A stretch of 64,000 nucleotides of DNA from NCBI GenBank assembly GCA_963705305.1, contig OY970067.1, positions 1,024,001 through 1,088,000 on the forward strand, in the 5' to 3' direction. Under the pieces are notes generated by a model. That model searched no databases, had not been told where the DNA came from, and saw nothing but the letters and a program-made list of their open reading frames with translations. This DNA is from an uncultured Methylomirabilota bacterium (GTDB taxonomy: Bacteria > Methylomirabilota > Methylomirabilia > Methylomirabilales > 2-02-FULL-66-22). A program made the translations under genes and the position numbers. Numbering within the stretch: position 1 is the stretch's first letter; each line of letters starts with the position of its first letter. Shown in pieces: positions 6,846 through 46,266 of this stretch.

Positions 6846-7232
6846 CTAGGCGGGATCTTCGGCTGCGAGGCGTGTGGAGAAGGCCATGTGGCGTGCGTGA
6901 GAGCGCAGACGGACCCGCTCAAACCGAGGGGCGATCGGTGCCGGCTTCAACCCGATGCAGATCTTGGAAAAGTTGGTCGGAAGGCTGAGGGTCTGCCAGA
7001 AAGCGTCGAGCCTGATCGGCTCGAGGCGCAAGGGACCCTTGGCAGGCAGAGATTCCCGGTCGACGAGGGATGGGACGGTCGTTACGGCTTCCCTGGACAG
7101 TCCAGCGTACAGTCGTGAGCCATCCACGTCCAGGAGATCGAAGCCAACAAACAGCCCCATCGCCAGGAAGGCCGAATACAGCCCTACCCGCCAGGCCGTT
7201 GAGCCTCGCCGCCACGTGCCCCGGAGCCTCAC
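6846..7232 (-). CDS. Putative membrane-anchored leader peptide, copy 1 (upstream of lctP)
   Basis: 128 aa: basic N-terminus, hydrophobic segment, FDLLDVDGS, ends RSHARH...EDPA. Architecture shared with 20886..21347 and 45886..46266. GAGG upstream of the GTG start. Confidence 0.65.
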   Translation of the reverse strand: MRLRGTWRRGSTAWRVGLYSAFLAMGLFVGFDLLDVDGSRLYAGLSREAVTTVPSLVDRESLPAKGPLRLEPIRLDAFWQTLSLPTNFSKICIGLKPAPIAPRFERVRLRSHARHMAFSTRLAAEDPA

Positions 7233-7269
7233 GACTCACCTCGCGGCTACCAGCGACGTATGCGGGCGG

Positions 7270-7299
7270 ATGCTACTTCGATCGGACTGTTGCTGTCAA
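7270..7299 (-). promoter_or_regulatory. Putative sigma70 promoter for leader ORF 1 / lctP
   Basis: TTGACA-N18-TAGCAT on the minus strand. Confidence 0.4.
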
Positions 7300-7370
7300 T
7301 ATGCTCGTCGCAGCCTATTGCATTGGGATCTAGCTTGTGTTTCCCGGCGAACAACCGTTCTCCCGGGGGC

Positions 7371-8462
7371 TCACGCGGCCCGCTGCTCCCGGCCCATCTT
7401 CCACAGCATCCAGGCCACCGTGAGGAGCCCCAAGAGAAACACAGCCGAGAACACGGCGAGCAGGTCTCCCTGCGTTGCGCTGGGCACCTCCCGCAGCCGG
7501 ACGAACGGGGCCAGGTACAGGCCCCGCACCATGTCGCGGAGGACGATCATCCCGGCCAGCGTGAGGAGGAGGACTCCCGCGGCCAGACGGATGAGAGCGG
7601 GTTGTCCGATCGGATCCATCGTCCGTGAGAGCAGAATCAACAGGAGCACACCCAGACCCACGGCCAGGGCAAAGGTCGGGGTCTCGGGAAATCGCCCTTG
7701 CATGATCCCCTGGAGGACGCCCAGGGGTAGGGCGAACAGGAACCAGAAGCCGTCCGCCACCTGCAGGCCGGTCGCCACCAGCGCCCAGCGCAGGCCGCGC
7801 TGCGCCAGCCATGGATAGAAGGGGTCCGGATCCCGCCGGGCGCGCTCCGTGGCCAGCAGCCCCAGGAACACGCCCCCCACTGCCAGCGACCCCAGGACAA
7901 AGTGGAGGTACCGGGGAAGCAGCGTCGGATCGCGGAGCGCATCGGCCGCCCCCATGCCGACCGCGACCCAGCGTGACGGCGTCAGTTCCAGGACGTTGAC
8001 CAGCACCTGGATCGCCGCCGCGCCCAGGAATGCGAGAGCGGCCACCAGGAGCCAGGCCGCGAGACCGTCCTTTCCGCCCGCCTTGTATTTGAACAGGTAG
8101 GTCGCGTAATAGCCCGCCCCCAGCAGGACCAGCAGGGACAGCCAGACCCATCCCACCAGGATGGTCGCCGGGTAGAAGACCTGACCGTACAAGACCTGGA
8201 CGAAGAGGAGGGGGGCGACCCCCGTGGTGATGGTGAAGGCGATCGTCGTGGGCAGGAATCCCGCCACCAGCCGCCCCAGGCGCCTACCCGGCCCATCGGG
8301 CCAGCCTGCCAGGAGGCGGTGCGCGGCGGCGATAATCGACCCGCCCAACGTGACGCTCAGAAACAGGATGTGGATGAGGAACGTGACGACCAGCAGCAGG
8401 TGAAAGAGCCAGGCCGGCGCCGGCAGCGGCATCGGGTCCAGGGCGGGAAGCGGCAGCGTCAT
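7371..8462 (-). CDS. Polytopic membrane protein, CydA-like partner subunit
   Basis: About 9 TM segments, His in TM1 (FLIHILF), TGVAPLLFVQVLYG, PRYLHF; coupled to the upstream gene by an ATGA overlap. Confidence 0.7.
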   Translation of the reverse strand: MTLPLPALDPMPLPAPAWLFHLLLVVTFLIHILFLSVTLGGSIIAAAHRLLAGWPDGPGRRLGRLVAGFLPTTIAFTITTGVAPLLFVQVLYGQVFYPATILVGWVWLSLLVLLGAGYYATYLFKYKAGGKDGLAAWLLVAALAFLGAAAIQVLVNVLELTPSRWVAVGMGAADALRDPTLLPRYLHFVLGSLAVGGVFLGLLATERARRDPDPFYPWLAQRGLRWALVATGLQVADGFWFLFALPLGVLQGIMQGRFPETPTFALAVGLGVLLLILLSRTMDPIGQPALIRLAAGVLLLTLAGMIVLRDMVRGLYLAPFVRLREVPSATQGDLLAVFSAVFLLGLLTVAWMLWKMGREQRAA

Positions 8463-9775
8463 TTCGCGCCTCCTGGGGCGGCGGCAGAGGCCGATGCAGG
8501 CGCGCCCCCCAGCCCGGCGAGATAGGTGGCCAGGCTCTTGATCTCTTCCTCCGTCCCGACGATCGGCGGCATCCCCGGCTGGCCGCCGCCGCGCAGGGCC
8601 TCGAGGAGCATCGCCAGGCTGGCGGCATCCATCCCACCCACCAAGGGCCGGATGGCCAGGTAGCCGTCCAGGCTATGGCACATCCGGCACTGGGCGCGGA
8701 AGACTTGCTCCCCCAGGCTCGTCGAAGCCTGAGCCAGACCGACCCCGGCCCAGTGCGCTTTCGACAGGATGCCTTGGTGATTCAGGCGATCCACCTCGTC
8801 CACGCGAACCCCGTTGCTGTACATGTACCCGTAAATCACGAACGGCTTCCGGCTCCCTTCCCGGATCCGCTCATACGCGCCGAGGTGCAGACCCGACAGC
8901 AGGATGGCCGCCAGGGCCGCCGCCACCCCGAACGTCCGCGGGAAGAGAAAACCGGCCCAGACCAGCAGGATGGACACGAGCGCCAGGGCCGCCAGACCGA
9001 CCAGGTACGTCTGTCGCAACAGCGCGCCGGCTGGAAAGATCAGGGCCCGGGCGTCGGCCGGAATCCTCGCCTGCCACCACCCGAGACCTGCCAGCGACAG
9101 GGCCGCGCCAGCGATGCCCCAGGCGGCCAGGTACCGGACCAGATCGCGCCGGCCGGACGCATCCGGCATCCAGGCGGCCACGACCCAGCCGTAGGCGCCG
9201 GCCAACAGCAGGGCGACGCCTGTGCGCAGCAGCAGGGACGGCCAGTACGTCGGATTGAAGAAGCCGTCCCAGAAGGCCCGGGTCTCGATCCAGCGGCCCG
9301 GGGTCAGCATGAAGGTGATGATCCCGTTGATGACGACCAGGCTGAGATAGGCCGCCAGAAAGTAGATCCAGCCGACGGCGACGTGGGTCCGGCGCGAGAA
9401 GCGGTCCCAGGTGCCGACGTACACCAGGGCCGCCGCGACCTCGACGAAGAAGAACACCCACTCGATCGCCCACCCCCACACGAAGGTATGGATCAGGGCC
9501 AACGTCGCCGCCGGCTGCACTAGGCCGATGGTGAACCAGATGCCCACCCCCGTGACGGCGCCCAGGACCGTGGAGAGCAGGACGAGGAAGGTGGACTCCT
9601 TGCGGGCGAACTCCAGCCAGAGGGGATTGCCTCGCCGGACGGCGAGTTGCTCCGTCGCCACGATGAGGAGACCGCCGCCCACGGCGAAGTGCGCGAGGAT
9701 TACGTGGAGGATGGCGATCCCCCCGATCAGCCAGCCTCCGTTGATGTACGGGACGAGGAAAAGCGGGTAGTCCAT
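8459..9775 (-). CDS. Cytochrome bd subunit I-like protein fused to a C-terminal cytochrome c
   Basis: ILHVILAHFAVGGG, GAVTGVGIWF, WAIEWVFFFVE, FMLTPG, FFNPTYWP, ERIREGSRKPF; C-terminal CRMCH heme motif and distal Met (GMPP). Confidence 0.8.
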   Translation of the reverse strand: MDYPLFLVPYINGGWLIGGIAILHVILAHFAVGGGLLIVATEQLAVRRGNPLWLEFARKESTFLVLLSTVLGAVTGVGIWFTIGLVQPAATLALIHTFVWGWAIEWVFFFVEVAAALVYVGTWDRFSRRTHVAVGWIYFLAAYLSLVVINGIITFMLTPGRWIETRAFWDGFFNPTYWPSLLLRTGVALLLAGAYGWVVAAWMPDASGRRDLVRYLAAWGIAGAALSLAGLGWWQARIPADARALIFPAGALLRQTYLVGLAALALVSILLVWAGFLFPRTFGVAAALAAILLSGLHLGAYERIREGSRKPFVIYGYMYSNGVRVDEVDRLNHQGILSKAHWAGVGLAQASTSLGEQVFRAQCRMCHSLDGYLAIRPLVGGMDAASLAMLLEALRGGGQPGMPPIVGTEEEIKSLATYLAGLGGAPASASAAAPGGAK

Positions 9776-9997
9776 GGCGGGCCTCCTGCGGCGCCCTGCC
9801 CCTCCCGTCGGGGCGACGGGAGGGGCGGCGAGAACAGGAACGTCACAGCCTCTTGGATGAGGCTCGCAAACCGCGGGATGCGGAAGGCGGACGCATCCGC
9901 GCGAAAATCCGAACAGAGCCGGGGCGCGCCGAAGGTCTCTTTCCCATTCCCGGGAAGCCTCCCGGCGCGCACCGGTCTTGGCGCGGGCAGGGGGCCG

Positions 9998-11002
9998 CTA
10001 GCGGCGCGAGAGAATGTACGACCGCAGCACCCGCATGTAGTTGGCCCGCTCGAAGGCGGCGGGGTTGGCCACCGACCGCTGGCTCATGCTGCCCTGCATC
10101 TGCCGGATGGAGGCGTATTCGTGCTCTTCCATCCAGGAGACGACACCGGCCCGCACCGCCGAGAGGTGCTGGATGCCGTTGGCCAGCAGGGCCGAGGTCA
10201 TCATGGCCGCCTTGGCCCCCGCCATCATGCACTTCAGCACGTCCTGGGCGGTGTGCACCCCCCCGGTGACGGCCAGGTCGGCCTGGATGCGGCCGCACAG
10301 GATGGCCACCCAGCGCACGCGCAGCCGCAGCTCTTCGGACCGGCTGAGGGTCAGGTTGGGAACGACCTCCAGCCTGTCCAGGTCGAAGTCGGGCTGGTAG
10401 AAGCGGTTGAAGAGGACCAGGGCGTTGGCCCCCGCCTGGTCCAGCCGCCTGGCCATGGCGGCCATGGAGCTGAAGTACGGCCCCAGCTTGACGGCCACGG
10501 GGATCTTGACGCTGGCCTTGACGTCCCGCACCAGGTCCACGTACATCTGTTCGACCTGGGCGCTGCTGACGTCGGGATTGGTCGGAATGTAATAGACATT
10601 CAGCTCCAGCGCGTCCGCGCCCGCCTCCTGCATCTTCCGGGCGTAGCCGATCCAGCCGCCGGTGGAGACCCCGTTCAGGCTGGCAATGACCGGGATGCCG
10701 ACTGCTGCCTTGGCCCGCCGCAGGTGCTCCAGGTACCCGTCGGGCCCCAGGTTATACTCCTTCATCTCCGGGAAGTAGGTCAGCGATTCGGCAAAGCTCT
10801 CCGTACCGGCCGAGAGAAATTGATCCAGGTCCTGGCTCTCCAGGCTCAGCTGCTCTTCGAACAGGGAATGCAGCACCACCGCGGCCGCCCCGGCATCCTC
10901 CATGCGCCGCAGGTTCCCCAGATCCTCGCACAGGGGCGACGCCGAGACGACCAGCGGGTTCTTCAGGGTGAGGCCGAGATAGGTTGTCGTGAGGTCGCTC
11001 AT
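9998..11002 (-). CDS. Dihydroorotate dehydrogenase-like flavoprotein (nifJ-associated type)
   Basis: [56 protein letters not shown]-like motif, FERANY. Confidence 0.85.
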
Positions 11003-14000
11003 TGCCCCTTCTCCTCTGTCGCGCCCGGGACCGGCATGGCCGCCCAGTGCTCGTACAGGCGCCAGCGCGCCGCCACCTCCGTCTGGGCCTGCTGCAGCAG
11101 TCGCTTGGCCGCTTCGGGGTCGCTGTGGTTCAGCATGGAGAATCGCGTCTCGTTGTTCTCGAACTTGTCCAGGGTGATGCTGGGGGCCTTGCTGTCCAGC
11201 ACGAGCGGGTTCTTGCCCTGCTTTTCCAGGTCGGGGTTGTAGCGCATCAGTGGCCAGTGGCCGGACTGGACCGCCGCCTTCTGCTGGTCCAACCCGTGCT
11301 TCAGGTCATAGCCGTGGGCAATGCAGTGGCTGTAGGCAATGATGAGGGAGCAGCCGTCGTATGCCTCGGCCTCCAGGAAGGATTTGACCGTGTGCATGTC
11401 GTTCATGCCGAAGGCCACCCGCGCCACGTAGATGTTCCCATAGGTCATGGCGATCATGGCCAGGTCCTTCTTGGGGCGGGGCTTGCCGCCGGCCGCGAAC
11501 TTCGCCACCGCGCCGCGCGGCGTGGCCTTGGACATCTGGCCTCCGGTATTGGAATAGACCTCGGTGTCCAGGACCAGGGCATTCACGTTGTAGCCCGAGG
11601 CTAAGACGTGGTCCAGGCCACCATAGCCGATGTCATAGGCCCAGCCATCGCCTCCGATGATCCACACGCTCTTCTTTACCAGGACCTCGGCCAGGCCCAG
11701 CAGGTCCCGCGCTTCGCGCGTATTGATCCCCTGCAGCTTCTCCTTCAAGGCTTTCACCCGATCGCGCTGGGCCTTGATGCCCGCCTCGCTGGACTGGTCG
11801 GCCTCCAGCAGGCCCTTGACTAGCTCGTCGCCCAGCTGGCCCGCCAGGCGCTCCAACAGCTCTCGGGCGTACTGCGTCTGCTTGTCCAGCGCGAGGCGCA
11901 TCCCCAGTCCGAACTCGGCGTTGTCCTCGAAGAGCGAGTTCGACCAGGTCGGCCCGCGGCCCTGGCGGTTGAAGGTGTAGGGCGTGGTGGGCAGGTTCCC
12001 CCCGTAGATGGAGGAGCAGCCCGTGGCGTTGGCGATCATGGCCCGGTCGCCGAAAAGCTGCGACATCAGCTTGATGTACGGCGTCTCGCCGCAGCCCGCG
12101 CATGCCCCGGAGAACTCGAACAGGGGCTCCAAGAGCTGCACGTCCTTCACCTGGGCCAGGTTCAGCCCGTCCCGGTCAACGTCGGGCAGGCCCAGGAAGA
12201 AGTTCCAGTTGTCCCGCTCCGTCTCGCGGATGGGGGGTTGCGGGGCCATGTTGATGGCCTTGAGGCGCGTCTCCTGCTTGTTCTTGGCCGGGCAGACCTC
12301 CACGCACAGCTCGCAGCCGGTGCAGTCCTCGGGGGCCACCTGGAGCGTGTACTTCATCTCCTTGAACTCGCGCCAGCGCGCGGGGGCCGACTTGAAGGTG
12401 GCCGGCGCATCCTTGAGGAGCTCCGGCGAGTAGAGCTTGGCCCGGATGACCGCATGCGGGCAAACCAGGATGCACTTCCCGCACTGGATGCAGACCTCCG
12501 GATCCCAGACGGGGATCTCCAGGGCGATGTTCCGCTTCTCCCACTGGGTGGTCCCGGTGGGGAACGTCCCGTCCTTGGGGAAGGCGCTCACCGGCAGGTC
12601 ATCCCCTTCGTTGGCGATGATCTTGGCCAGTGTCTTCTGCACGAAGTCCGGCGCCTCCTTGGGAACCGGCAGCCGCAGGTCGAAGGCGCTGGAGACCTTC
12701 CCGGGCACCTTCACCTCGTGCAGGTGGTCCAGGGCGGCATCCACGGCGGCGAAATTCTTCTTCACCACGGCCTCGCCCCGCTTGCCGTAGGTCTTCTCGA
12801 TGGCGTGCTTGATGGCGGCGATGGCCTCGTCCCGGGGCAGGACGCCGCTGATGGCAAAGAAACAGGTCTGCATGATGGTGTTGATGCGCACCCCCATGCC
12901 GGTCTGCTCCGCCACCTTGTAAGCGTCGATGACGTAGAAGCGCAGCTTCTTGTCGATGATCTGCCGCTGGACCGTGCGCGGGAGGTGATCCCAGACATCC
13001 TCCGGCCCGTACAGGCTGTTGAGCAGGAACGTCGCCCCCGGCGCCGCCGCCTTCAGGACGTCCAGCCGCTCCAGGAAGCTGAACTGGTGGCAGGCCACGA
13101 AGCTGACCTGGCTGATGAGATAGGGGGAGTGGATGGGCTTGGGGCCGAAGCGCAGGTGGGAGATGGTCAGGGCGCCCGACTTCTTCGAGTCGTAGACGAA
13201 GTAGCCCTGAGCATAATTGTCGGTATCCTCGCCGATGATCTTGATGGAGTTCTTGTTGGCTCCCACCGTCCCGTCGGCGCCCAGGCCGTAGAACAGCGCG
13301 CGGATCGTCTTGGGATCCTCGGTGGAGAAGGCCGGGTCGTAGTCCAAGCTGGTGTGGGTCACGTCGTCGGCGATGCCGACCGTGAAATGGTTCTTCGGCG
13401 CCGCCTTGGCCGCCTCGTCCAGGACCGCCTTGACCATGGCCGGGGTGAACTCCTTGGAGGACAACCCGTAGCGCCCCCCGATGACCCGCGGCATGGCGGC
13501 GAACGGGGCCGCTCCGGCTGTCACTGCCTCGCTCACCGCCGTCACCACATCCGTGTACAGGGGCTCGCCCGCCGCCCCCGGCTCTTTGGTCCGGTCCAGA
13601 ACGGCCAGCGTCTTGACCGTCTTGGGCAGGGCCTTCACGAAGTGCTCCACCGAGAACGGCCGGTAGAGCCGGACCTTGAGGACACCGATCTTCTCCCCCT
13701 TGGCCGTGAGGTACTCCACCGTCTCCTGCGCCGTCTCGGCGCCGGAGCCCATCAGGACGATCACCCGCTCGGCGTCCGGAGCCCCCAGGTAGTCGAACAG
13801 GTGGTACTGCCGGCCCACGATCTTGGCAAACGTGTCCATGGTGTTCTGCACGATCTGGGGACAGGCCAGGTAGTAGGGGTTGACCGTCTCGCGGGCCTGG
13901 AAGTAGACATCGGGATTCTGGGAGGAGCCGCGCAGCACCGGATGATCCGGAGACATCGCCCGGGCGCGGTGGGCCTGAACCAGCTTCTCGTCCAACATGG

Positions 14001-17393: not shown

Positions 17394-18911
17394 CTAGTGG
17401 CCGGCAGGCGCTGGCTTCCCCTTCCGCTTGGCCCGGTACGAGCTGATGGCGGGCCAGAAGCATATGATCGCCGCCGCAACGACCAGCGGGAGCGTGATCG
17501 GCGGCTGCAGGAAGATCAACAGCGAGCCCTGGGACATGATCAGGCTCTGCCGCATGGCCGACTCCGCCATGTCCCCCAGGACCAGGGCCAAGAGCATGGG
17601 CGCCATGTTGTAATCCAGCTTTTTGAACGCCCAGCCGATGACCCCGAAGACCATCATGTACCAGATGTCGATCATGCGGTTGTTGACCGCGTAGGCGCCG
17701 ATGGCGCAGATGAAGATGAGCAGGGGCATCAGGATCGCGAAGGGGGTCCTGAGGACCGCCGCGAACAGGGGCGCGAACGCCAGGACGATCAACAGTCCGA
17801 GGAGGGTGCCGTACCAGGTGCTGGCGATGAGGCCCCAGACGAAGTCGGGGCTATCAACAAAGAGCATGGGTCCCGGCTGAAGCCCCCAGATCATGAGGCC
17901 TCCCAGGATGACCGCTGCCGTCGGCGACCCCGGAATCCCCAGGGTGATCATGGGGATCATGGCGGACGTCCCGGCGCCGTGAGCGGCGGCTTCCGGGGCG
18001 AAGATGCCGGCGATATGGCCCTGCCCGAACTGCGCCCTGTCCTCCTCCTTCATGCCTTCCTTGGCGAACCCGTAGGCCATGAAGGAGGCCGGCGTTGCGC
18101 CGCCCGGCTTGAAGCCCATCCAGACTCCGACGATGGAGCCCAGGACGAGGGTTTTCCAGTACCGCTTCATGTCGGCCAGCGTGCTCGTGATGTCGCTCCA
18201 CCGCATCCGGACCTTGACCCCTTCGAAGCGGAGACCCTCCTCCACGGTGAGCAGGATCTCGCCGATGCCGAACAGGCCGATGACGGCGACGATGAAGTTG
18301 AAGCCGCCCATCAGCGGCACCAGGTTGAAGGTCAGGCGCAGCTGTCCGCTCACGACGTCGATGCCCACCGCGGCCATGATGAACCCGAGGGCGGTCGCCA
18401 CCACCGTCTTGATCGGGGACTTCCCCACCAGGCCGACGAAGGCGCTGAAGGTGAGCAGCATGACGCCGAAGACCTCGGGCGGCCCGAACCGCAGGGCAAA
18501 GGCGGCCAGGATGGGCGCGAAGAACGTCAGCATGATCGTGCCCAGGACGCCGCCGCAGAAGTGGGCGAAAAATGCGGCGCTGAGCGCCCTCCCGGCCTGG
18601 CCTTTCTTGGCCATGGGATAGCCGTCGAAGGTTGTGGCGACGGCCCACGGCTCACCCGGAATGTTGAAGAGGATGGAGCAGATGCAGCCTCCGTACAGGG
18701 CCCCCCAGTAGAGGGAGGCGAGCAGGATGACGGCGGCCACCGGAGGCATCACGAACGTGATGGGGATCAGGATGGCGCAGCCGTTGGCCCCGCCCAGCCC
18801 CGGCAACACGCCGACAATGACTCCCAGGATGAGCCCGACGATGGCGGTGATGAGATTGTACGGCTCGGCGGCGACCTTGAGCCCCATCAGCAGGTTGGGG
18901 AGAATTTCCAT
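17394..18911 (-). CDS. tctA: Tripartite tricarboxylate transporter large permease
   Basis: GVIVGVLPGLG, YGG...ILFNIPGEPWAVATTFDGYPMA, PMITLGIPGSPTAAVILGGL, GLQPGP. Confidence 0.93.
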   Translation of the reverse strand: MEILPNLLMGLKVAAEPYNLITAIVGLILGVIVGVLPGLGGANGCAILIPITFVMPPVAAVILLASLYWGALYGGCICSILFNIPGEPWAVATTFDGYPMAKKGQAGRALSAAFFAHFCGGVLGTIMLTFFAPILAAFALRFGPPEVFGVMLLTFSAFVGLVGKSPIKTVVATALGFIMAAVGIDVVSGQLRLTFNLVPLMGGFNFIVAVIGLFGIGEILLTVEEGLRFEGVKVRMRWSDITSTLADMKRYWKTLVLGSIVGVWMGFKPGGATPASFMAYGFAKEGMKEEDRAQFGQGHIAGIFAPEAAAHGAGTSAMIPMITLGIPGSPTAAVILGGLMIWGLQPGPMLFVDSPDFVWGLIASTWYGTLLGLLIVLAFAPLFAAVLRTPFAILMPLLIFICAIGAYAVNNRMIDIWYMMVFGVIGWAFKKLDYNMAPMLLALVLGDMAESAMRQSLIMSQGSLLIFLQPPITLPLVVAAAIICFWPAISSYRAKRKGKPAPAGH

Positions 18912-18945
18912 TTCCGGATGACTCCTTTCCTTTCACCCGCTCAGG

Positions 18946-19428
18946 TCAGAACCGGAGGATCTGAGCCCCGAACATCCCCATGGGCATTGGGATGAGGAAG
19001 ATCTTTTCAAACAGCCACCAGAACACGAGGGGAATGGGAATGCTGACGAGCAACACGGTTCTCCACCGGAATTGGCCGACCCAGCGGATGTATCCTATCA
19101 GGTAGATCATCGCCGCCACGTAGAGTCCGACCACCTCGGTCAGAAGGACCATCCCGCAGGCCGGGATGAAGACCGTGAGGACCGGCTTCATTCCCCCGGG
19201 GGGGACGAAGCGCTTCTCGCCCTTCACCGACGAGGTCCCCTTGGTGGCCTGCCGCATGATGATGAGGCAGCCGCCCACGACCAGGACGGCCATCAGCATC
19301 GGGAAGAACCCGGCCTGGGGTCCGTCGGCCCCCCAGCCGGCCCCCAGCTGGTAGGAATCCCAGCCCACCACCAGGCCGAGGGCTAAGAGGATCGCCGCCA
19401 CCAGAAGATCCGCCGACTTATTAGTCAT
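18946..19428 (-). CDS. tctB: Tripartite tricarboxylate transporter small permease
   Basis: Four TM segments, GPQAGFFP, FEKIFLIPMP; lies between tctC and tctA. Confidence 0.88.
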   Translation of the reverse strand: MTNKSADLLVAAILLALGLVVGWDSYQLGAGWGADGPQAGFFPMLMAVLVVGGCLIIMRQATKGTSSVKGEKRFVPPGGMKPVLTVFIPACGMVLLTEVVGLYVAAMIYLIGYIRWVGQFRWRTVLLVSIPIPLVFWWLFEKIFLIPMPMGMFGAQILRF

Positions 19429-19536
19429 TACTGCTCCTTCCTTGCCGACAAACTCACGATGGGCTGCTCCGATCTCAGAAGGAGTCCCCGGGAAGAAACG
19501 GCCCTCCTCCCCGGGGCTCCAAGCCGCCGCCCTCAG

Positions 19537-20538
19537 CTACTTCTTCAGCAAGCCGCCTTTTGCCATGAGCTCCTTGGTCATGGCATCCTTCTCTTCCAGC
19601 CACTTCACGTACTCGTCCCCGGAGAGGAAGGCGCCCTTGAGCGCATACTTCTCCAGATAGTCCTTCCACGAGGCGGTCTCCGTCACCTTCTTGAACAGGG
19701 AGACATAGCCCTCCTGAACGTCCTTGCCGATCTTGGGGGCAGCAAAGATGCCGCGGAGCATCATGTATTCCAGATCCACGCCTGTTGCCTCCTTCAGGGT
19801 CGGGATCTTATCCCACATCGGCAGGTGGATCCGATCGTGGGCGATCACCGCCAGGGGGCGCAGCTTCCCGGCCCGCCAGTGGCTGACGGCCTCGGCCGGA
19901 TTGTTCACCGTCGAGTCGATGTGCTTCCCCACCAGCTCCACTGCCACCGTTCCGCCCCCCTTGAAGGGCACGTAGGCGAACTTCAGGCCGAAGGCCTGCT
20001 CCAACTGCACGGTGATGATCTGGTCCTCCTGCTTGGTGCCAGTGCCGCCCATCTTGAACTTGCCCGGGGCCTTCTTCACGGCGTCGAAGTATTCCGTCGC
20101 CGTCTTGTACGGAGAATCCGCGTTCACCCACAGCACGAACCAGTCCAGGGCCAGGCGCGCGATCGGGGTCATGTCCTTCCAGCTGAAGGGCACCCCGGTC
20201 GCCAGGGGGGTCGTGAAGAGGTTGTCGAGGGTGATGATGACCATGTTGTCGTCGCCGGGCTTGCCCTTCATGTACATGAACCCTTCCGCCCCGGCGCCGC
20301 CCGCCCGGTTGACCACGATCCACGGCACGTCAGTGATCTTGTCCTTCTGGAAGAGGGGGGAGATGTAGCGGGCCATGATGTCGGCCCCGCCGCCGGTCCC
20401 TGCCGGAACGTTGAATTCCACCGGCTTCGTCGGCTGCCATTCGGCATTCGCCGCACTGCTCCACACGACCGGGATCGCCACGACCAGAGCTGCCACGGCG
20501 ACCCACACCCACACTGTCCGTCTGCACTTTCCTACCAT
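19537..20538 (-). CDS. tctC: Tripartite tricarboxylate transporter substrate-binding protein (Bug family)
   Basis: Signal peptide; PAGTGGGADIMAR, NRAGGAGAEG, YVPFKGGG, RGIFAAP. Confidence 0.93.
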   Translation of the reverse strand: MVGKCRRTVWVWVAVAALVVAIPVVWSSAANAEWQPTKPVEFNVPAGTGGGADIMARYISPLFQKDKITDVPWIVVNRAGGAGAEGFMYMKGKPGDDNMVIITLDNLFTTPLATGVPFSWKDMTPIARLALDWFVLWVNADSPYKTATEYFDAVKKAPGKFKMGGTGTKQEDQIITVQLEQAFGLKFAYVPFKGGGTVAVELVGKHIDSTVNNPAEAVSHWRAGKLRPLAVIAHDRIHLPMWDKIPTLKEATGVDLEYMMLRGIFAAPKIGKDVQEGYVSLFKKVTETASWKDYLEKYALKGAFLSGDEYVKWLEEKDAMTKELMAKGGLLKK

Positions 20539-20885
20539 GTCCTTCCTCCTTATGCCCGCCGCGACTTATGACATTAATTTGGGCGACCGCTCCCGGGCCC
20601 GCGGCGGCGCCCAGGATTTCGAGGGCCCCTCACCATCCCTTATATCTCGACCCTGACACCCGGCATGACCCTCCACGCCGAGCGTACGGGAGGTTGCCGA
20701 TTGTTGCCGCCGGAAGAAGGCATCTTGCTATCCGCCACCAGCGATTCACGATCTTCCGTTGTGAATCCCTCCACCGGCAGCCCCGTTGCCAGGGGGACTG
20801 CGATGAGATTTATGCCCTCAGGGGCCACGAGCCGCCTCGGGGGGTCAAGCAAACACTTGAGGGAATGATTAGGAGGCGGCGCGCC

Positions 20886-21347
20886 CTAGCAGAGCCGAGA
20901 GGAATCCCATGCCGGGTCGGGGACCTCCCGGCCCGCGGAGGATGCTTCCCGGAAGAGACAGGATCGAGATAGGGTTCGAATGTGTTCGGAGGCGAATGGC
21001 TTTGCGGTGCACGCTTGGGTGCATGGCGGTGATTTGGGAGCGGTCGGCAGGCGCAGCGACTGGCGGGCGAGGCGTGGTGAGGTCGGCGGCGGTGGAGGGT
21101 CACCGGGCCGGCCGAGCATCCGGATCTGGGCGAGCTCTGCCTCCCCCCCCGTCGGACTCTCGGCCACAGGGGTGCTGGGATCCGAGTCGTCCAGATCCAG
21201 GAGATCCTGTGGCGTCACGCTGCCCAGCAGAAAGATGGCGAACAGGACGGCGCCCCACAACACCCACGACCGTCGTTTGAGCTCCGCACTGAAATGCACT
21301 GCGACGCTCCAAGACGAGGGGGCCGTGCCCGTCTCGCCCTTCCGCAC
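20886..21347 (-). CDS. Putative membrane-anchored leader peptide, copy 2 (upstream of tctCBA)
   Basis: KRR, hydrophobic segment, DLLDLDDS, Pro-rich linker, RSCLFRE...PDPA plus 7 residues. True start may be downstream of 21347. Confidence 0.6.
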   Translation of the reverse strand: MRKGETGTAPSSWSVAVHFSAELKRRSWVLWGAVLFAIFLLGSVTPQDLLDLDDSDPSTPVAESPTGGEAELAQIRMLGRPGDPPPPPTSPRLARQSLRLPTAPKSPPCTQACTAKPFASEHIRTLSRSCLFREASSAGREVPDPAWDSSRLC

Positions 21348-40010: not shown

Positions 40011-40029
40011 CATGTCCGGGCCGGCACCC

Positions 40030-40593: not shown

Positions 40594-40792
40594 GATCGCC
40601 CCCTGGGGAGAGATGTCAGCAATCAGCGGTCAGCCGCACCAGCAATGCGACGCGTCGGGAATCTCTTGAGGCTTGCCCGCCCCGGCTGTCGTATCGCCGA
40701 ATGCCGGGACCGGAATCCAGTCGCGCCCGGTCCCTGCCCCGGCGCGCGACGCCCGCGGGGGCTCCCGCAGGCGGGCCAGGTTCCGCCGCCCC

Positions 40793-41671: not shown

Positions 41672-41833
41672 GGGTCCGTTCCTTTTCGGCGCCGCGGATC
41701 GGCGGCCGCCTGCGTGCGACCTTCCGGCCACCCCCCTGCCCATCCGCGCCGCCAGGAGCCCTGTCCCGAGCGGCGCCGGGGGGCGAGGGGGATGTCGCCA
41801 GCCCGTGGTCCCTGTGGCCGGGCGAGGTCGGGC

Positions 41834-44362
41834 CTACGCCTGGGCGAGCAAGCCGAGCTTTCCCTCGTAGATGAACGTCCGGGCGTTCTCGGCGATCACC
41901 TCGGGATCAACCTGCAGCCGGGCCACACCGGTCTCCATGGCGGCCGTGGCCACCGCCTTGGCGACGGCCACCGGCACGCGGAAGTCCAGCATGTAGGGCA
42001 GGATGTACTCCGGCTTCAGCTCCTTCGCGCTCACCAGGTTCGCGATGGCGTGGGCCGCCGCGATCTTCATGGCGTCGTTGATCTCGCGGGCGCGGACATC
42101 CAGGGCGCCGCGGAAGATGCCCGGGAAGCCCAGGGAGTTGTTCACCTGGTTCTCGAAGTCCGACCGGCCGGTGGCCACCACGGCGGCCCCGCCGGCCTTG
42201 GCCTCCTCCGGAAAGATCTCGGGGACGGGGTTCGCCATGGCGAAAATGATGGGGTCCTTCGCCATCGTCCGCACCATCTCCGGGGTCACCGCCTTGGCCA
42301 CCGAGAGCCCGACGAACACGTCGGCCCCCACCAGGGCGTCGGCCAGCGCGCCGCTGCGGCGCTCCTTGTTCGTGATGCAGGCCATCTCGGCCTTGACCGG
42401 GTTCATCCCCTTGGGCCGCCCTTCGACCACGATCCCCTGGCTGTCGCACAGGATCAGGTCCTTCACGCCGACCTTCAGGAACAGCCGGGCCACGGCGATG
42501 GAGGCGGCCCCGGCCCCGTTCAGGACCACGCGGGCGTCGGCCACGCTCCGCCCGGTGATCTTCAGGGCGTTCAGGAGCGCTGCCAGCACGATGACCGCCG
42601 TCCCGTGCTGGTCGTCGTGCATGACCGGGATATCCAGCTCTTTCTTGAGCCGGTCCTCGACCGCGAAGCAGCGCGGTGCGGCAATGTCCTCCAGATTGAT
42701 GCCGCCGAAGACCGGGGAGATGGCCTTGACCACCGCCACGATCTCCTCAACGTCCTGGGTGGCGATGCAGACCGGGAAGGCCTCCACGCCGCCGAAGGTC
42801 TTGAAGAGCACGGCCTTGCCCTCCATGACGGGCATGGCGGCCCGGGCGCCAATGTTGCCGAGACCAAGGACCGCGCTCCCGTCCGAGACCACCGCCACCA
42901 GGTTCCCCTTGGCGGTGAGGTCGTAGACCTTGGCCGGGTCCTTCAGGATGGCCTCGGCGGGCAGCGTCGAGCCGGGGGGCAGGTACAGCAGGCTCAAGAT
43001 GTTGGCGTCCCGGATGGGCACTTTGCTCACCACCTGGAGCTTCCCGCGGAAGCGGCGATGCAGGTCCAGGGCTTCCTCTTTTTGCGTGAGCGGCTTTCCG
43101 GCGGCTCGGGGCTCGACCGGGAAGCTGCCCTCGTAGATAAAGCGCTGGAGCCGATCCTCGATCTCGGCCGGCTCCATGGTCTTGCGGGCATCGCCCGCGG
43201 CCATGGCCACCTTCGCCACGGCGACGGCGAGGGCGCGGGCGACCCGATATTCGAAGATCGGCGGGATGATCCGCTCGGGACCCATCTGGTCGGCGGGCAC
43301 GCAGTCGGCCAGGGCCTTGGCGGCCGCCAGCAGCATCTGGGTGGTGACGTTGCGGGCTTGGACGTCCAGGAGCCCGCGCAGCACCCCCGGGAAGACCAGC
43401 GCAATGTCGAGCTGGTTCGGGTAATCCGATCGGCCCGTCGCCACGATTGCGGCCCCGGCCTGCTTGGCCTCGGCGGGCGTAATCTCCGGCGTGGGGACCG
43501 CCAGGGCGAACACGATCGCATCCCGCGCCATGGACGAGACGCATGCGGGCGAGACGGCGCCGGCCGCCGACAGGCCAATCAGCACGTCGGCGCCGCGCAC
43601 CGCCTCGGCCAGCGGCCCGCTGAAATCGTGCGGGTTGGTCTGACGCGCGATCTCCGCCTTGGCCCAGTTCATGTTGGTCGGCCGGTACTTGTGAATGGCG
43701 CCGGCCCGGTCGCAGACGACGACGTTCTGGGCCCCCGCGGCCGCCAGGAGGCGCGCCGTGCCGATCCCGGCCGACCCGGCGCCGAGGATGATGATGCGGG
43801 CGTCCTCCAGCCGCTTCCCCACCAGCGGCAGGGCGTTGGTGAGCCCCGCCAGGACCATCACGCCGGCGCCGTGCGCGTGGTTGTGGAAGATTGGGACGTT
43901 CACGGCCCGCTGCAGCCGATCCTCTAGCGAGAAACAGTTCGGGGAGGCGATGTCTTCCAGGCAAAAGGCGCCGAAGGTGGGCGCCAGCATGGTCACGCTC
44001 TGGACCAGTTCGTCGAGGGTGCGCACCTCGAGACACATGGGCAGCGCATCGATCCCGGCGAATGTCTTGAAGATGACCGACTTCCCCTCCATGGCCGGCA
44101 AAGCGGCCCGCGGTCCCGGAGAGCCCATGCCGAAGAGCGCCGAGCCATCGGTGATCAGCGCCACCGTGTTGCCGCGGCAGGTGTACTCGAACGAGGCCTG
44201 GGGGTCCTTGTGGATGGCGAGACACGGCTCGGCGACCCCCGGGGTGTAGACGAGGCTCAGCGTGGCCCGGTCCTTGACCGGGACCTTGCTCTCCACCCCG
44301 ATCAAGCCTCGATGCCGGTAGCGGTAGTCCAATGCCTCCTGGGCGTCGTGCTGATGCGACAT
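41834..44362 (-). CDS. Tandem-duplicated NAD(P)-dependent malic enzyme
   Basis: Two full small-ME repeats, each with GN.VA...DGSA, MEGK..FKTF, LEDIA, ATGRSD, FPG..RG.LDV.AR. Confidence 0.9.
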   Translation of the reverse strand: MSHQHDAQEALDYRYRHRGLIGVESKVPVKDRATLSLVYTPGVAEPCLAIHKDPQASFEYTCRGNTVALITDGSALFGMGSPGPRAALPAMEGKSVIFKTFAGIDALPMCLEVRTLDELVQSVTMLAPTFGAFCLEDIASPNCFSLEDRLQRAVNVPIFHNHAHGAGVMVLAGLTNALPLVGKRLEDARIIILGAGSAGIGTARLLAAAGAQNVVVCDRAGAIHKYRPTNMNWAKAEIARQTNPHDFSGPLAEAVRGADVLIGLSAAGAVSPACVSSMARDAIVFALAVPTPEITPAEAKQAGAAIVATGRSDYPNQLDIALVFPGVLRGLLDVQARNVTTQMLLAAAKALADCVPADQMGPERIIPPIFEYRVARALAVAVAKVAMAAGDARKTMEPAEIEDRLQRFIYEGSFPVEPRAAGKPLTQKEEALDLHRRFRGKLQVVSKVPIRDANILSLLYLPPGSTLPAEAILKDPAKVYDLTAKGNLVAVVSDGSAVLGLGNIGARAAMPVMEGKAVLFKTFGGVEAFPVCIATQDVEEIVAVVKAISPVFGGINLEDIAAPRCFAVEDRLKKELDIPVMHDDQHGTAVIVLAALLNALKITGRSVADARVVLNGAGAASIAVARLFLKVGVKDLILCDSQGIVVEGRPKGMNPVKAEMACITNKERRSGALADALVGADVFVGLSVAKAVTPEMVRTMAKDPIIFAMANPVPEIFPEEAKAGGAAVVATGRSDFENQVNNSLGFPGIFRGALDVRAREINDAMKIAAAHAIANLVSAKELKPEYILPYMLDFRVPVAVAKAVATAAMETGVARLQVDPEVIAENARTFIYEGKLGLLAQA

Positions 44363-44416
44363 GGGCGACTCCTTTCCCGTTGCGAGCTGCGCCACGGCTT
44401 CCTGGCCGGCGAGCCG

Positions 44417-45799
44417 TCAGGCGTGCGCGGGCGCGGTCTTTCGGCTACGGATCTCCTCTTCCTTTCCGACCTCCGACAGCTCGAGGTGCTTCGTCTCGGG
44501 CGAGAACATCAAGCTGACGAAGGTGATCACGGCGCCGACGGTCAGGATCACGGCCGGCGAGAGCCACATGTCCTGCCCCTCGATGGCACTGATGAACGGA
44601 ATCTTGTGGGCCCACCACACATAGATGCTGAACCAGGCGCCGATGAGCGCGCCCGCCGAGTAGCCGAAGCCCACCCCGGCGGCCCGCCGCTGGGTGGGGA
44701 ACCGCTCACAGAGATAGGCGGGGACAATGCCCCAGGCCAGCTTCAGCATGGCTGCCATGGTCGTGCCCAGGACCGCCATCCAGAGGTCCCGCGCGACGGC
44801 GGCATGATACAGGACATAGTAGACGGGGATCCCGAAGACCACCAGAAAGACGCAGTACCACTGGGTCAGGATCTTCCGGCCGGTGAAATCCGACAGCCAG
44901 CCGTACAGGTTGTACCCGAGAAACGCCATGAAGAGGGCAAAGCCGTAGATCAGGCTGTACGTGGTGGTGTCGAAGCCGCGGCCCTGGAGGGTCAGGATGT
45001 TTGGCAGGAATCCATAGACCGAGTAGTCGGTGAGGAACAGCCCGGTCATGAAGGCGAAGACCTGCAGGAAGGTCCACAGCGCGGGCGGCTTGAAGAGGCT
45101 GAAGAACGGGGACTTCTCGATGACCCCCGCCTTCTTGGTCTTCTCGAATTCCGGCGATTCATGCAGGACCCGCCGGATGTACAGCGCCAGGAATACCGGC
45201 ACGACACCCGTGATGAACGTGATCCGCCAGCCGTATGCCGCCATCGCCTCTCGTCCCAGTCCGGCGGCGATCGCGGCGAAGACGAGGGAGGCGAACACGT
45301 AGCCCAGGGCGAAGCCCGACTGGACGAAGCCGCCAATCGCCCCCCGGCGGGCGCGCGGCGCGTGCTCGATGGCGAAGGTGTGTCCGACCGCGTACTCACC
45401 CCCGAAGAAGCAGCCCATCAGGAACCGCAGGACGCAGAAAAGCACATACGCCCACACGCCGATCTCGGCGTAGGTGGGCAAAAGGCCGCCCAGCACCGAC
45501 ATCACGCCGACGCCGCCGATGGTGAGCATCAGCAGGAAGCGGCGGCCGACCTTGTCGCCGTAGTGGCCGAAGAAGGCCGAGCCGACCGGCCGCGCCGCCA
45601 TGGTGATGGAGTAGGTGAAGAGAATGGTGATGTACTGCCACGCAGCGCTGCCTTTGGGTGACGCGAAGACCTTCACCAAGATCGGGGCCATGACGATCAC
45701 GAGCGCCATGTCGTACGCGTCCATCATGAACCCGAGCATCTGCGAGACCATTGCCAGCTTGGCATCCCGTGTGAGTGTGGAACTCGCCTCGTTCGCCAT
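44417..45799 (-). CDS. MFS transporter (metabolite:H+ symporter type)
   Basis: MDAYD, ARPVGSAFFGHYGDKVGRR, RFLMGCFFGGEY, EHAPRARRG, ERFPTQRRA. Confidence 0.92.
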   Translation of the reverse strand: MANEASSTLTRDAKLAMVSQMLGFMMDAYDMALVIVMAPILVKVFASPKGSAAWQYITILFTYSITMAARPVGSAFFGHYGDKVGRRFLLMLTIGGVGVMSVLGGLLPTYAEIGVWAYVLFCVLRFLMGCFFGGEYAVGHTFAIEHAPRARRGAIGGFVQSGFALGYVFASLVFAAIAAGLGREAMAAYGWRITFITGVVPVFLALYIRRVLHESPEFEKTKKAGVIEKSPFFSLFKPPALWTFLQVFAFMTGLFLTDYSVYGFLPNILTLQGRGFDTTTYSLIYGFALFMAFLGYNLYGWLSDFTGRKILTQWYCVFLVVFGIPVYYVLYHAAVARDLWMAVLGTTMAAMLKLAWGIVPAYLCERFPTQRRAAGVGFGYSAGALIGAWFSIYVWWAHKIPFISAIEGQDMWLSPAVILTVGAVITFVSLMFSPETKHLELSEVGKEEEIRSRKTAPAHA

Positions 45800-45885
45800 G
45801 TTGGAGCTCCTTCTGGTCGTGCAGGCCCAATGCGACGCGCCCCAGCCCCTGCGGCGGGGCGGACCCCCTTCCGGCGCGGAGACCT

Positions 45886-46266
45886 TCAAGCAGGCTCGGA
45901 GGCCGATGGGGCGGCCGTGGCGGCCGCCAGCCCCCGCAGGTGGGCCCGCGGGCGAAAGATCGCGCGCTCAGGGTGGGAAGCCGCCCCCAACCGAAGGCGG
46001 CTGGCCGGCTTCCCCGTCTGCGTGGTTGTGCCCAGGTGGAGGGGGGAGAGCGGGCGGCGGGGAGTTTCCGGGGCGAGCAGCGCCGCGTCGATTTGCGCCG
46101 CGTCGGCCGGGCCGTAGACAAGCAAGGCAAACGGGACGACGGTGAGGGAATCGAAATCCGGGAGATCCAGGGCCAGGCAAAAGGCGAGCACCAGAAGCCC
46201 GAGGAACCACACTGTGCCCTCTGCCCCCGATCGTCGCCGGCGGCCGAATTTCGCCGTGTTCTTCAC
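45886..46266 (-). CDS. Putative membrane-anchored leader peptide, copy 3 (upstream of the MFS/malic enzyme operon)
   Basis: RRRR, hydrophobic segment, LDLPDFDS, Pro-rich linker, RPRAHLRG...SEPA. Confidence 0.6.
   Translation of the reverse strand: MKNTAKFGRRRRSGAEGTVWFLGLLVLAFCLALDLPDFDSLTVVPFALLVYGPADAAQIDAALLAPETPRRPLSPLHLGTTTQTGKPASRLRLGAASHPERAIFRPRAHLRGLAAATAAPSASEPA

Follow-up and report, generated by a model that had tools for sequence, protein, structure and literature searches.

To our knowledge, few regulatory nascent peptides sense conditions on the far side of a membrane (SecM, MifM, VemP, CutF and CruR), and nearly all of these rely on RAPP-like or proline motifs. TnaC is a Rho-dependent leader that arrests at its stop codon; it has 24 residues, carries no membrane anchor, ends in Pro-UGA and senses a free cytoplasmic ligand within the tunnel. 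We know of almost no gene regulation described in Methylomirabilota (NC10).

Passages of PMC9426467 describe CruR as a 145-aa exported, unstructured uORF product with a 162-bp spacer; its C>G region holds a rut site, and the distance between its motifs is conserved. CutF is called a 'transmembrane Cu sensor' in parts of PMC9973294 and 10.1101/2025.02.05.636593. Excerpts from PMC10987492 give the stop-dependent arrest motifs NSP-stop, NAP-stop and DGMK-stop, and the four criteria of a screen for monitoring substrates: (i) a sec or yidC uORF without annotated function, (ii) an N-terminal signal or transmembrane (TM) segment, (iii) a conserved C-terminal sequence and (iv) a spacer of >30 residues separating signal from C-terminal motif. 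PMC10987492 has 0 occurrences of 'Tat', and the published monitoring-substrate searches left tat genes out.

The stretch of DNA analysed here (the window) comprises 64,000 nucleotides of contig OY970067.1, from an uncultured Methylomirabilota bacterium. An earlier note on it had described three ORFs as related membrane leader peptides, each heading a carboxylate-transporter operon. These ORFs (copy A, 6846..7232; copy B, 20886..21347; copy C, 45886..46266; all on the minus strand) exist and translate as it described. The acidic motifs FDLLDVDGS, QDLLDLDDS and LDLPDFDS can be read in the translations of A, B and C, respectively; RSH, RSC and RAH begin 19, 19 and 20 residues before the end of EDPA, PDPA and SEPA, and the spans from the first Asp to the Ala are 97, 99 and 93 residues.

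A protein family of Methylomirabilota

Pairwise BLASTP comparisons among the three window ORFs were not significant (E = 12, 0.065 and 0.83). An HMM of the three was searched against the complete set of 60,196 genomic stop-to-stop ORFs (>=50 aa) and recovered 5 further copies (E values of 1e-6 to 5e-5); a 9-copy profile, searched against 1.84 billion representatives, matched 195 proteins (E <= 1e-3). The likeness of the window ORFs is therefore far beyond chance. They do form one family, but the count of three was too low: this genome holds at least 10 intact copies, plus decayed ones. Copies are present in 42 of the 251 Methylomirabilota genomes searched. Checks proposed in the earlier note (a profile search, a Pfam comparison and a tabulation of downstream genes) yielded homologues with coding-type conservation concentrated at both termini, no match to any characterised family (in Pfam, NCBIfam, PHROGs or PDB) and non-random contexts with co-oriented transport genes. 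The family is real and undescribed, and consists of ~125-residue membrane-anchored disordered proteins of Methylomirabilota.

From N- to C-terminus, members carry an Arg-rich tail, a TM helix of ~18 residues, the acidic motif F-[DE]-x-L-D-x-D-G-S, E-x-E-R, a disordered linker and a C-terminal motif. The N-terminal part comprises R-R-R-S, W-W and a hydrophobic run at positions -17 to -1 relative to the acidic motif, whose residues are conserved in 134-143 of 146 proteins. AlphaFold (AF2; 138 sequences) predicted a single confident helix (residues 11-33, pLDDT 88-93); everything outside it was coil (pLDDT 55-65), with no domain predicted. The acidic motif lies a median of 96 residues from the C-terminus (IQR 93-97, n=100) and 76 from the Arg of LPR. 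In diverged pairs, dN/dS was 0.56-0.90 in the linker, vs 0.13-0.64 N-terminally and 0.20-0.60 C-terminally. Linker length is thus fixed although linker sequence evolves near-neutrally, and so poorly conserved a linker cannot encode carboxylate specificity.

The C-terminal consensus reads LPR..L…[DE]P[AVLF]-stop, with R at -26, LPR at -21 to -19, L at -16 and DPA at -3 to -1. [DE]P[AVLF] abuts the stop codon in 105 of 155 family proteins. In these DPx ends (n=105), D occupies -3 in 95, a single P -2 in 105 and A -1 in 78, and 102 of them end in Ala, Val, Leu or Phe. The claim that [DE]PA stands at the stop thus holds for copies A and C and, as a class, for these 105 proteins, but not for copy B, which runs on for 7 residues (DPAWDSSRLC). 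In the DPx-stop class exactly 18 residues follow the LPR Arg (IQR 18-18, n=49); in a sister clade the end is LPRASLxDxxPSA-stop, and exactly 10 residues follow this Arg (IQR 10-10, n=20). The motif-to-end distance is constant across classes (95 residues for DPx-stop, 92 for PSA-stop). No conserved Cys pair (CxxC/CxxxC) was detected in the family position counts, and the C-terminal consensus contains neither RAPP nor a proline repeat.

Genomic context of the copies

Copy A (128 aa) starts with GTG preceded by the SD-like GAGGTG, and its TAG stop abuts EDPA. Its orthologues P0007, P0039 and P0032 are 40-48% identical. A sigma-70-like promoter, TTGACA-18-TAGCAT, lies 38 nt 5' of it (7270..7299, minus strand; 1 promoter-like site found vs 0.1 expected). 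The 189-nt spacer (6657..6845, minus strand), in which a scan found no promoter-like or terminator-like site and no Rfam family, leads to the gene of an LctP-family lactate/glycolate permease (4845..6656, minus strand; PF02652 at 5e-138, TIGR00795 above cut-off).

The longest ORF of copy B begins at 21347; GTG at 21299, with GGAG 8-11 nt upstream, is its likely start. After PDPA it continues with WDSSRLC and TAG, and this extension (DPAW..C) is kept in the orthologues P0004, P0005, P0008 and P0009. Its 347-nt spacer (20539..20885, minus strand), scanned likewise, has neither a promoter-like nor a terminator-like site and precedes the tripartite tricarboxylate transporter genes tctC (19537-20538), tctB (18946-19401) and tctA (17394-18911), which occupy 17394..20538 on the minus strand (PF03401, PF07331, PF01970). 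The copy-TctCBA order is repeated at two other loci (L057 and L058). Copy C (126 aa) has a GTG start with GGAGG upstream, and TGA after SEPA. An 83-nt spacer (45803..45885, minus strand) separates it from an MFS metabolite/H+ symporter-type transporter gene (44417..45802, minus strand, ATG at 45802; PF07690, PF00083), whose top NCBIfam match, TIGR00883 metabolite/H+ symporter, is below cut-off. The copy C orthologue at L054 precedes the same MFS gene. The co-oriented downstream genes are thus those that the earlier note had named. In all three copies, the annotated frame is the top scorer among six frames; the coding score per codon is -0.14, -0.23 and +0.03 vs ~+0.5 for ordinary genes, and GC3 is 0.75-0.81 vs 0.87-0.95.

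Across this genome, 8 of 10 copies head operons of carboxylate secondary transporters (LctP, TctCBA, MFS x4, DASS, TRAP), and in relatives the next gene is co-oriented with the copy in 25 of 27 loci. The carboxylate context is, however, confined to this genus. In sister clades, 19 of 22 copies stand at the head of or inside CusA/CzcA-type RND operons (CzcCBA-type, heavy-metal), where the family gene lies 44-53 nt ahead of an outer-membrane (czcC-like) gene, the position of CzcI; four relatives display the order copy-tatA-tatC or copy-tatC. The non-random placement of copies, upstream of and co-oriented with transport genes, is supported.

Likeness to and difference from described leaders

Like CutF, CruR and CzcI (DUF2946), family members are small (~125-145 aa), have an N-terminal export or anchor signal, are predicted to be unstructured and carry a short invariant motif, the putative sensor, whose distance from the conserved C-terminal motif is itself conserved; they are the first gene of the operon, often with a long spacer. 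The C>G (rut-like) region inside the ORF resembles the Rho-loading region of CruR, and the sister-clade copies directly precede czcC-like genes, as CzcI does. DUF2946 itself was not found by hmmscan in the 3 window ORFs (E <= 10) or in 138 family members (E <= 0.01). Moreover, the family has the acidic F-D-x-L-D-x-D-G-S abutting the TM instead of CxxC/CxxxC, LPR..L…DPA-stop instead of RAPP/PPP, and ~95 instead of ~45 residues from sensor to end. Its anchor is predicted to be uncleaved, up to 10-13 paralogues occur per genome, and its putative targets include carboxylate transporters and Tat.

The arrest peptides compared were SecM, MifM, VemP, ApcA/ApdA/ApdP, the RQH family and the NSP-stop, NAP-stop and DGMK-stop classes. 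With monitoring-substrate arrest peptides the family shares an N-terminal signal or TM, a >30-residue spacer, a conserved C-terminal segment of exit-tunnel length and, in 4 loci (tatA/tatC), a downstream protein-localisation gene. Some known arrest classes require the stop codon, at which the family motif stands in most members. Unlike these peptides, members carry no known arrest motif (their arrest being putative), and the putative targets are mostly transporters, and Tat rather than Sec/YidC. Three of the four screen criteria given in the excerpts from PMC10987492 describe the family (TM, conserved C-terminus, >30-residue spacer); as for criterion (i), the copies have no annotated function, but sec or yidC is never the next gene in 59 loci. 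The family resembles TnaC in the rigid spacing from a conserved residue to the stop, the long unstructured spacer and the C-rich, G-poor RNA around the stop, and differs from it by an ORF of ~125 residues with a TM, a D-P-A end and the use of any of three stop codons.

A proposed leader-peptide mechanism and its rivals

SD-like sequences precede the start codons of 8 of 9 copies. Promoter-like sites were found 5' of copies A, F and D, and in none of the copy-to-gene spacers scanned. In 35 ORFs, (C-G)/200 nt averages +0.162 across the final 200 nt, vs -0.005 (sd 0.065) in ordinary coding windows, 0.9% of which reach 0.15. The final 12 codons show a drop in G at fourfold third positions, from 0.38 to 0.166; the controls gave 0.44 (ordinary genes), 0.41 (S/P/T/A-rich windows) and 0.44 (ordinary gene ends). 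The terminal D-P-A codons are GAT in 17/24 (28% in the genome), CCT in 13/33 (4.4%) and GCG in 0/23 (35%). This synonymous-site G depletion and the rare terminal codons indicate selection at the level of RNA or translation. A C-rich, G-poor rut-like region, synonymous sites included, thus covers the 3' ends of the ORFs, as is looked for in a Rho-dependent leader; Rho is encoded in the genome, and termination itself is putative. The Rfam search gave no match, and no conserved RNA structure was found.

We give an even chance to the reading of the family as cis-acting leaders of the uORF type, whose nascent chain would be a sensor by analogy with CutF/CruR and with SecM, MifM and VemP; we infer the arrest, the dependence on Rho and the signal that would be sensed. 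Each copy would be transcribed from its own promoter as the operon's first cistron, which is consistent with copy position, co-orientation and the promoter-like sites at 3 copies. The Arg-rich N-tail and short TM helix would direct the ribosome, still translating, to the membrane, where they would insert N-in, leaving F-D-x-L-D-x-D-G-S and E-x-E-R on the periplasmic face. With the ribosome at the ORF end, ~95 residues on, the R…LPR..L…[DE]P[A]-stop segment would occupy the exit tunnel, and the unconserved middle would lie inside the translocon with both conserved motifs outside. The ribosome would dwell there for a time set by the state of the periplasmic motif, perhaps through divalent cation binding or through translocation of the acidic cluster by the PMF. 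This ribosome, or one queued behind it, would deny Rho access to the spacer and to the C-rich, G-poor 3' portion of the ORF or, alternatively, hold the next start site open, and the expression of downstream transporter, metal-efflux or Tat genes would thereby be tuned. Overall, the interpretation in the earlier note, of an arrest or attenuation peptide tuning transporter expression, is partly supported.

A number of observations count against such leaders. Copies are missing from 11 of 20 genomes of the same genus, just 4 of ~40 MFS genes in this genome have one, and some next genes have cytoplasmic products (response regulators, aminotransferase, HD hydrolase). Known arrest motifs (RAPP, RAGP, poly-Pro) are not present in the family, and we know of no established staller ending in D-P-A-stop. 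The LPR-to-stop distance differs by clade (18 vs 10), about one third of the family, copy B included, extends 4-11 residues past DP, and stop codons are mixed (TAG 13, TGA 10, TAA 5, in 28 loci of which one was later dropped). Spacers in this genome vary from 66 to 347 nt, with no shared structure seen, and the 44-53-nt spacers of 11 sister-clade loci displayed neither an SD-sequestering helix nor covariation. S/P/T/A-rich composition accounts for part of the C>G skew, control windows of this kind having +0.088. Finally, conservation of the juxtamembrane motif above 95% is also compatible with a mature protein that has a binding partner.

Such a mature, free-standing small membrane protein is possible, though doubtful. 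It would combine an N-in anchor with a disordered periplasmic tail of ~95 residues and work in trans on the neighbouring envelope system, as a CzcI-like regulator or an accessory factor; the acidic motif and the [DE]-P-hydrophobic C-terminus would bind a partner such as a cation, an outer-membrane component or a PDZ-type protease. Besides the near-invariant motif, the Ala, Val, Leu or Phe ends of the DPx class, which resemble class III PDZ ligands or C-terminal protease tags, argue for it, as do the SD-like sequences and the sister-clade gene in the CzcI place, at a distance typical of an ordinary operon; a tail of fixed length might serve as a ruler across the periplasm. However, a single fold-less protein would have to serve as partner for LctP, MFS, DASS, TTT, TRAP, RND and Tat, with a near-neutral linker and no predicted domain. 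The free DPA carboxyl end is missing in the extended members, and the synonymous-site G depletion, rare terminal codons and poor codon adaptation also speak against this protein.

It is quite unlikely that the copies are leaders that tether without sensing, in which TM translation and a slow finish draw a polycistronic mRNA to the translocon and the polytopic or exported proteins encoded downstream are consequently made at the membrane; XBP1u is a eukaryotic parallel. Most next genes do encode integral-membrane or exported proteins, and the layout of TM and conserved C-terminus with rare codons at the end would suit tethering, which nevertheless leaves unexplained the near-invariant acidic motif and E-x-E-R, the C>G region, the cytoplasmic next genes and the lack of a copy at most transporters of the same families. 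Chance open frames over a conserved DNA or RNA element are hardly credible. The genome has 66% G+C, with long spurious ORFs in every frame, and the coding scores of the window ORFs are low; this reading is contradicted by the open frame and in-frame C-terminal motif across 195 clusters (110-135 aa), by dN/dS <1 at both ends, by motif residues that survive synonymous change and by the negative RNA searches.

In a narrower form of the leader mechanism, which we consider unlikely, the mRNA would carry its own check on energisation or on cations: D-x-x-D-x-D, on the outer side of the membrane, would be translocated or take up a cation and so release or prolong the DPA-stop pause, and PMF-consuming envelope operons would follow. 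Membrane potential drives acidic residues across membranes, and expression of the machines concerned (secondary carboxylate transporters, CzcCBA pumps, TonB, DedA, Tat) would follow this potential or the periplasmic divalent-cation level. This reading is supported by the next genes, since a PMF-dependent system stands there in 42 of 59 loci and an ABC transporter in 0 of 59. If true, it would be the first 'monitoring substrate' for the Tat pathway and the first single leader family wired to a regulon of unrelated transporters.

As leaders, the family would add a new kind of motif (LPR…DPA-stop, set at a rigid distance from the stop codon), an acidic instead of a thiol sensor, and carboxylate uptake, Tat and Co/Zn/Cd-type efflux as targets; up to 10 paralogues in one genome form a natural variant series, and the proposal is directly testable cell-free, so that the organism need not be grown. 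If the product is instead a mature small protein, it still represents an unannotated family of 195 database clusters. Family members are often missed or truncated by gene callers.

Family members in the genome and beyond

Three minus-strand ORFs of the window, at 6846-7232 (copy A), 20886-21347 (copy B) and 45886-46266 (copy C), had been described in an earlier note as related membrane leader peptides. Their translations bear every feature listed there: an Arg/Lys cluster with a single hydrophobic segment, the acidic motifs FDLLDVDGS (A), QDLLDLDDS (B) and LDLPDFDS (C), and RSH, RSC or RAH beginning 19, 19 and 20 residues ahead of the end of EDPA, PDPA and SEPA, respectively. From the first Asp to that Ala there are 97, 99 and 93 residues. 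The stop codon directly follows the motif in A and C, and B is extended by WDSSRLC.

Pairwise BLASTP among A, B and C gave no significant match, and profiles were therefore needed. Moreover, every frame of the genome (5.65 Mb, 66% G+C) contains long spurious ORFs, and chance therefore had to be ruled out by other means. With an HMM built from A, B and C, all 60,196 stop-to-stop ORFs of the genome that reach 50 aa were searched. This recovered five further copies at E values of 1e-6 to 5e-5 and two weaker ones, indicating that A, B and C are indeed related. With later searches the count rose to ten intact copies, besides two decayed ones. The tenth copy, at L087:3852-4208 (+) (genome 2350851-2351207), is divergent and was missed by the first HMM; it carries YLDVQILGLDGS … SSDPV-stop and lies 66 nt upstream of a dctP-dctQ-dctM TRAP operon. 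The decayed copies stand in tandem behind a Crp-like regulator gene (L004, about 6690-8228; genome 3355690-3357227), one with three stop codons and the other split by a frameshift. Copy H, ahead of an oxalate/formate-type MFS gene (L002:6724-7146 (+); genome 609723-610145), has no in-frame ATG, GTG or TTG before its transmembrane segment, and an ATG occurs just upstream in a different frame. A 5' frameshift, an error in the assembly or an unusual start may account for this.

When 1.84 billion representative proteins were searched with a nine-copy alignment (A2), 195 matched at E <= 1e-3, 73 of them at E <= 1e-10; nearly all were 110-135 aa long and matched end to end. A2 matched in 11 of the 41 related genomes searched, and 9 of these 11 are among the 20 that belong to the same genus; a narrower alignment (A3) yielded 2 loci only. 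With a 138-sequence profile, 42 of 251 genomes of the phylum gave matches: 8/20 in the genome's own family, 9/20 in family f7, 24/159 in family f9 and 0 in the other sampled families. A same-genus match came from 'Candidatus Methylomirabilis sp.' and a partial one from a Binatia MAG. One locus, L063 (E = 4e-4), was judged a false positive and left out.

Comparison with Pfam, which the earlier note had proposed, and with other libraries returned nothing: Pfam gave 0 real matches among 138 members, and NCBIfam and PHROGs none to the family. No usable relatives emerged from a PDB profile search or from the ESM Atlas, where only low-TM look-alikes of a disordered model were retrieved. A full-text literature search on the motif and related concepts found no description of the family.

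The copies were also considered as passengers of mobile elements. This reading was rejected: paralogues are just 21-32% identical and orthologous positions are kept between genomes, despite nearby IS copies. These IS copies, with a DDE_Tnp_1_4 transposase, adjoin leader regions at L066:3-1367, L005:8154-9527 and L053:2689-3909; one lies directly upstream of copy J and one beside a relative's copy.

Conserved ends, linker and distance to the stop codon

The short N-terminal tail contains R-R-R-S, the three Arg being kept in 77, 65 and 83 and the Ser in 92 of about 137 proteins. After it come W-W and a hydrophobic stretch, about 18 residues long, that ends in Y/F-x-x. The acidic motif has the consensus F-[DE]-[VLI]-L-D-[LVI]-D-G-S (F 141, D 143, D 141, G 134 and S 141 of 146). 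About 20 residues beyond it lies E-x-E-R (kept in 73, 62 and 78 of 146), and then come roughly 40 residues without conservation. The C-terminal segment consists of R(-26), L-P-R(-21 to -19), L(-16), a Ser/Thr/Ala/Pro-rich stretch, D(-3), P(-2), A(-1) and the stop. A [DE]-P-x end is present in 105 of 155 proteins, x being A, V, L or F in 102 of them; the others mostly carry 4-11 extra residues, as in copy B.

From the acidic motif to the C-terminal end the median distance is 96 residues (IQR 93-97, n=100). In proteins ending [DE]-P-x-stop (DPx class), exactly 18 residues follow the Arg of LPR (IQR 18-18, n=49), and in the sister clades f9 and f7, which end in LPRASLxDxxPSA-stop (PSA class), exactly 10 (IQR 10-10, n=20). 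Despite these different lengths, the motif-to-end distance is still 95 in the DPx class and 92 in the PSA class. In an AlphaFold2 model from the 138-sequence alignment, the transmembrane helix was the sole confident part, the other 95 residues being predicted as coil (pLDDT 55-65).

Two other readings of the N-terminus were discarded. Processing as a lipoprotein or by signal peptidase was dropped because there is no lipobox and Tyr/Phe occupies position -3 before the motif in 141/146. Against a Tat signal-anchor, just 87/146 proteins have RR, and the S-R-R-x-F-L-K pattern is not conserved.

Selection was assessed on diverged orthologue and paralogue pairs, very close pairs holding too few changes to be informative. 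The dN/dS ratio was 0.13-0.64 over the first 36 codons, 0.56-0.90 in the linker (0.29 for one pair) and 0.20-0.60 over the last 27 codons. These regional values indicate that the frame is translated, that both ends are constrained as protein and that the middle is kept mainly for length.

Over the last 200 nt of 35 family ORFs, (C-G)/200 averaged +0.162 (range 0.085-0.23), against -0.005 +/- 0.065 in ordinary coding windows, 0.9% of which reach 0.15. At fourfold-degenerate third positions, the share of G dropped over the length of the ORF, from 0.38 to 0.166 in its last 12 codons. This is below all controls (ordinary genes 0.44, S/P/T/A-rich windows 0.41, last 12 codons of ordinary genes 0.44), which indicates that the C>G skew is not fully explained by amino-acid composition. 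In the terminal D-P-A codons, GAT was used 17/24 times (genome 28%), CCT 13/33 (4.4%) and GCG 0/23 (35%).

Downstream genes and spacers

As the earlier note had reported, the next co-oriented genes in the window encode transporters, identified here with Pfam and NCBIfam: an LctP permease after A (4845-6656), tctC-tctB-tctA after B (17394-20538) and an MFS transporter after C (44417-45802). The spacers measure 189, 347 and 83 nt, respectively. Eight of the 10 intact copies of this genome head carboxylate-type secondary transporters: LctP, TctCBA, DASS and DctPQM (one copy each), metabolite/H+ symporter-type MFS (two) and oxalate/formate-antiporter-type MFS (two, above the NCBIfam cut-off). Copy D is followed by a co-oriented creatininase gene after about 970 nt devoid of called genes (L001:9309-10276), and one intact copy has no clear downstream gene. 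Seen from the transporter side, just 4 of the roughly 40 MFS genes are preceded by a copy, as is one of the two full tctA genes.

Among 27 relatives' loci, one false positive having been left out, 25 have a co-oriented next gene. It belongs to secondary transporters in 8 (LctP, TctCBA and MFS twice each, DASS, TRAP), to tatA-tatC or tatC in 4, to RND, TonB-C and DedA/VTT in 1 each, to GT2 glycosyltransferases in 3, to response regulators in 2 and to other enzymes in 3, and is of unknown type in 2; the remaining 2 loci have none. In the sister clades (22 copies in 20 loci), 19 copies head or sit within OEP-CzcB-like-CusA/CzcA operons, with a spacer of 44-53 nt in 12 of these 19. The CusA/CzcA-type pump matched TIGR00914 at 1009 bits (cut-off 701). 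In none of the 59 loci from this genome, relatives and sister clades was an ABC transporter the next gene.

Second copies at L072:8427-8789 and L073:11037-11390 lie between two CusA/CzcA-type pump genes, overlapping the end of the upstream gene, with the next gene about 55 nt further; family copies are thus not confined to the head of an operon. At four sister-clade loci that are closely related, the copy heading a CzcCBA-like operon adjoins a divergent gene for an ANTAR (RNA-binding antiterminator) response regulator (L067:1662-2201, L068:3505-4104, L069:2514-3083, L071:1699-2238).

By the prediction criteria of the scan, promoter-like sites occur upstream of copies A, F and D and in none of the spacers scanned. 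Sequences resembling Shine-Dalgarno sites were read by eye ahead of 8/9 starts. The spacer between copy J and the DASS gene contains a terminator-like hairpin 9 nt past the stop of copy J (L005:7522-7534 (-), GGCGG-TAG-CCGCC then CCTTCTTTCA), the scan giving 1 site where 0.5 was expected by chance. At 9/11 sister-clade loci (L067-L084), UGACCG at the stop of the family ORF has its complement, UGGUCA, in codons 1-3 of the outer-membrane gene that lies some 50 nt downstream (columns 67-72 and 124-129 of the A5 alignment); no covariation was seen.

A possible cis-acting leader or small membrane protein

The observation of the earlier note is confirmed and extended, and its interpretation as an arrest or attenuation leader is plausible, partly supported and unproven. 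We favour a cis-acting leader that would act through its dwell time at the ORF end, because the layout, with a ribosome at the stop codon, has the geometry of known co-translational sensors, and because precedents exist. In the published accounts available for these systems, the uORF CruR is exported, unstructured and 145 residues long, has a spacer of 162 bp and a rut site in a C>G region of its own, and keeps the spacing of its motifs to within 1-2 residues (PMC9426467); CutF, a transmembrane sensor according to its authors, opens the start site of the next gene and requires a Sec signal, a metal motif and a C-terminal motif (PMC9973294; preprint 10.1101/2025.02.05.636593); and several arrest classes require the stop codon (PMC10987492). 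The family may work like DUF2946 proteins and monitoring substrates but is a member of neither, since their defining sequence features were looked for and not found.

When the ribosome reaches the stop codon, the exit tunnel would hold about 30-35 conserved residues (R…LPR..L…DPA), and 25-40 unconserved residues would thread the gap and the translocon. Following the positive-inside rule, the two conserved motifs would then lie on the periplasmic side, adjoining the inserted anchor. The state of the acidic motif would set the dwell time of a paused ribosome, which could in turn control Rho access or re-initiation; Rho is encoded in this genome.

However, several observations speak against a leader. 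The family has no known arrest motif, about one member in three (B among them) has an extended C-terminus, the LPR-to-stop distance takes two values, stop codons are mixed, occurrence within the genus is patchy and some next genes are cytoplasmic. Nor was a conserved RNA switch found: the stop-to-start consensus of 11 sister-clade loci had an energy of about 0 and no covariation, single-sequence folds of 7 spacers of this genome shared no SD-sequestering design, and Rfam gave 0 matches over the whole window. The main rival, a small CzcI-type membrane protein acting in mature form, is possible but in our judgement less likely.

As for the signal sensed by such a leader, the earlier note had included a carboxylate among its candidates. 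The transported carboxylate cannot be the signal, because the only variable part of the family is nearly neutral. A divalent cation would be in keeping with the acidic motif and with CzcCBA as the ancestral context, and membrane potential would fit the PMF-dependent target set.

What is new is the motif set, the rigid ruler to the stop codon, the spread of multiple paralogues over unrelated transporter families, and the position ahead of tatA/tatC, a pathway outside published uORF screens; in PMC10987492, 'Tat' occurs 0 times. In this genome, an IS copy lies directly upstream of the sole tatC, where relatives carry a family copy.
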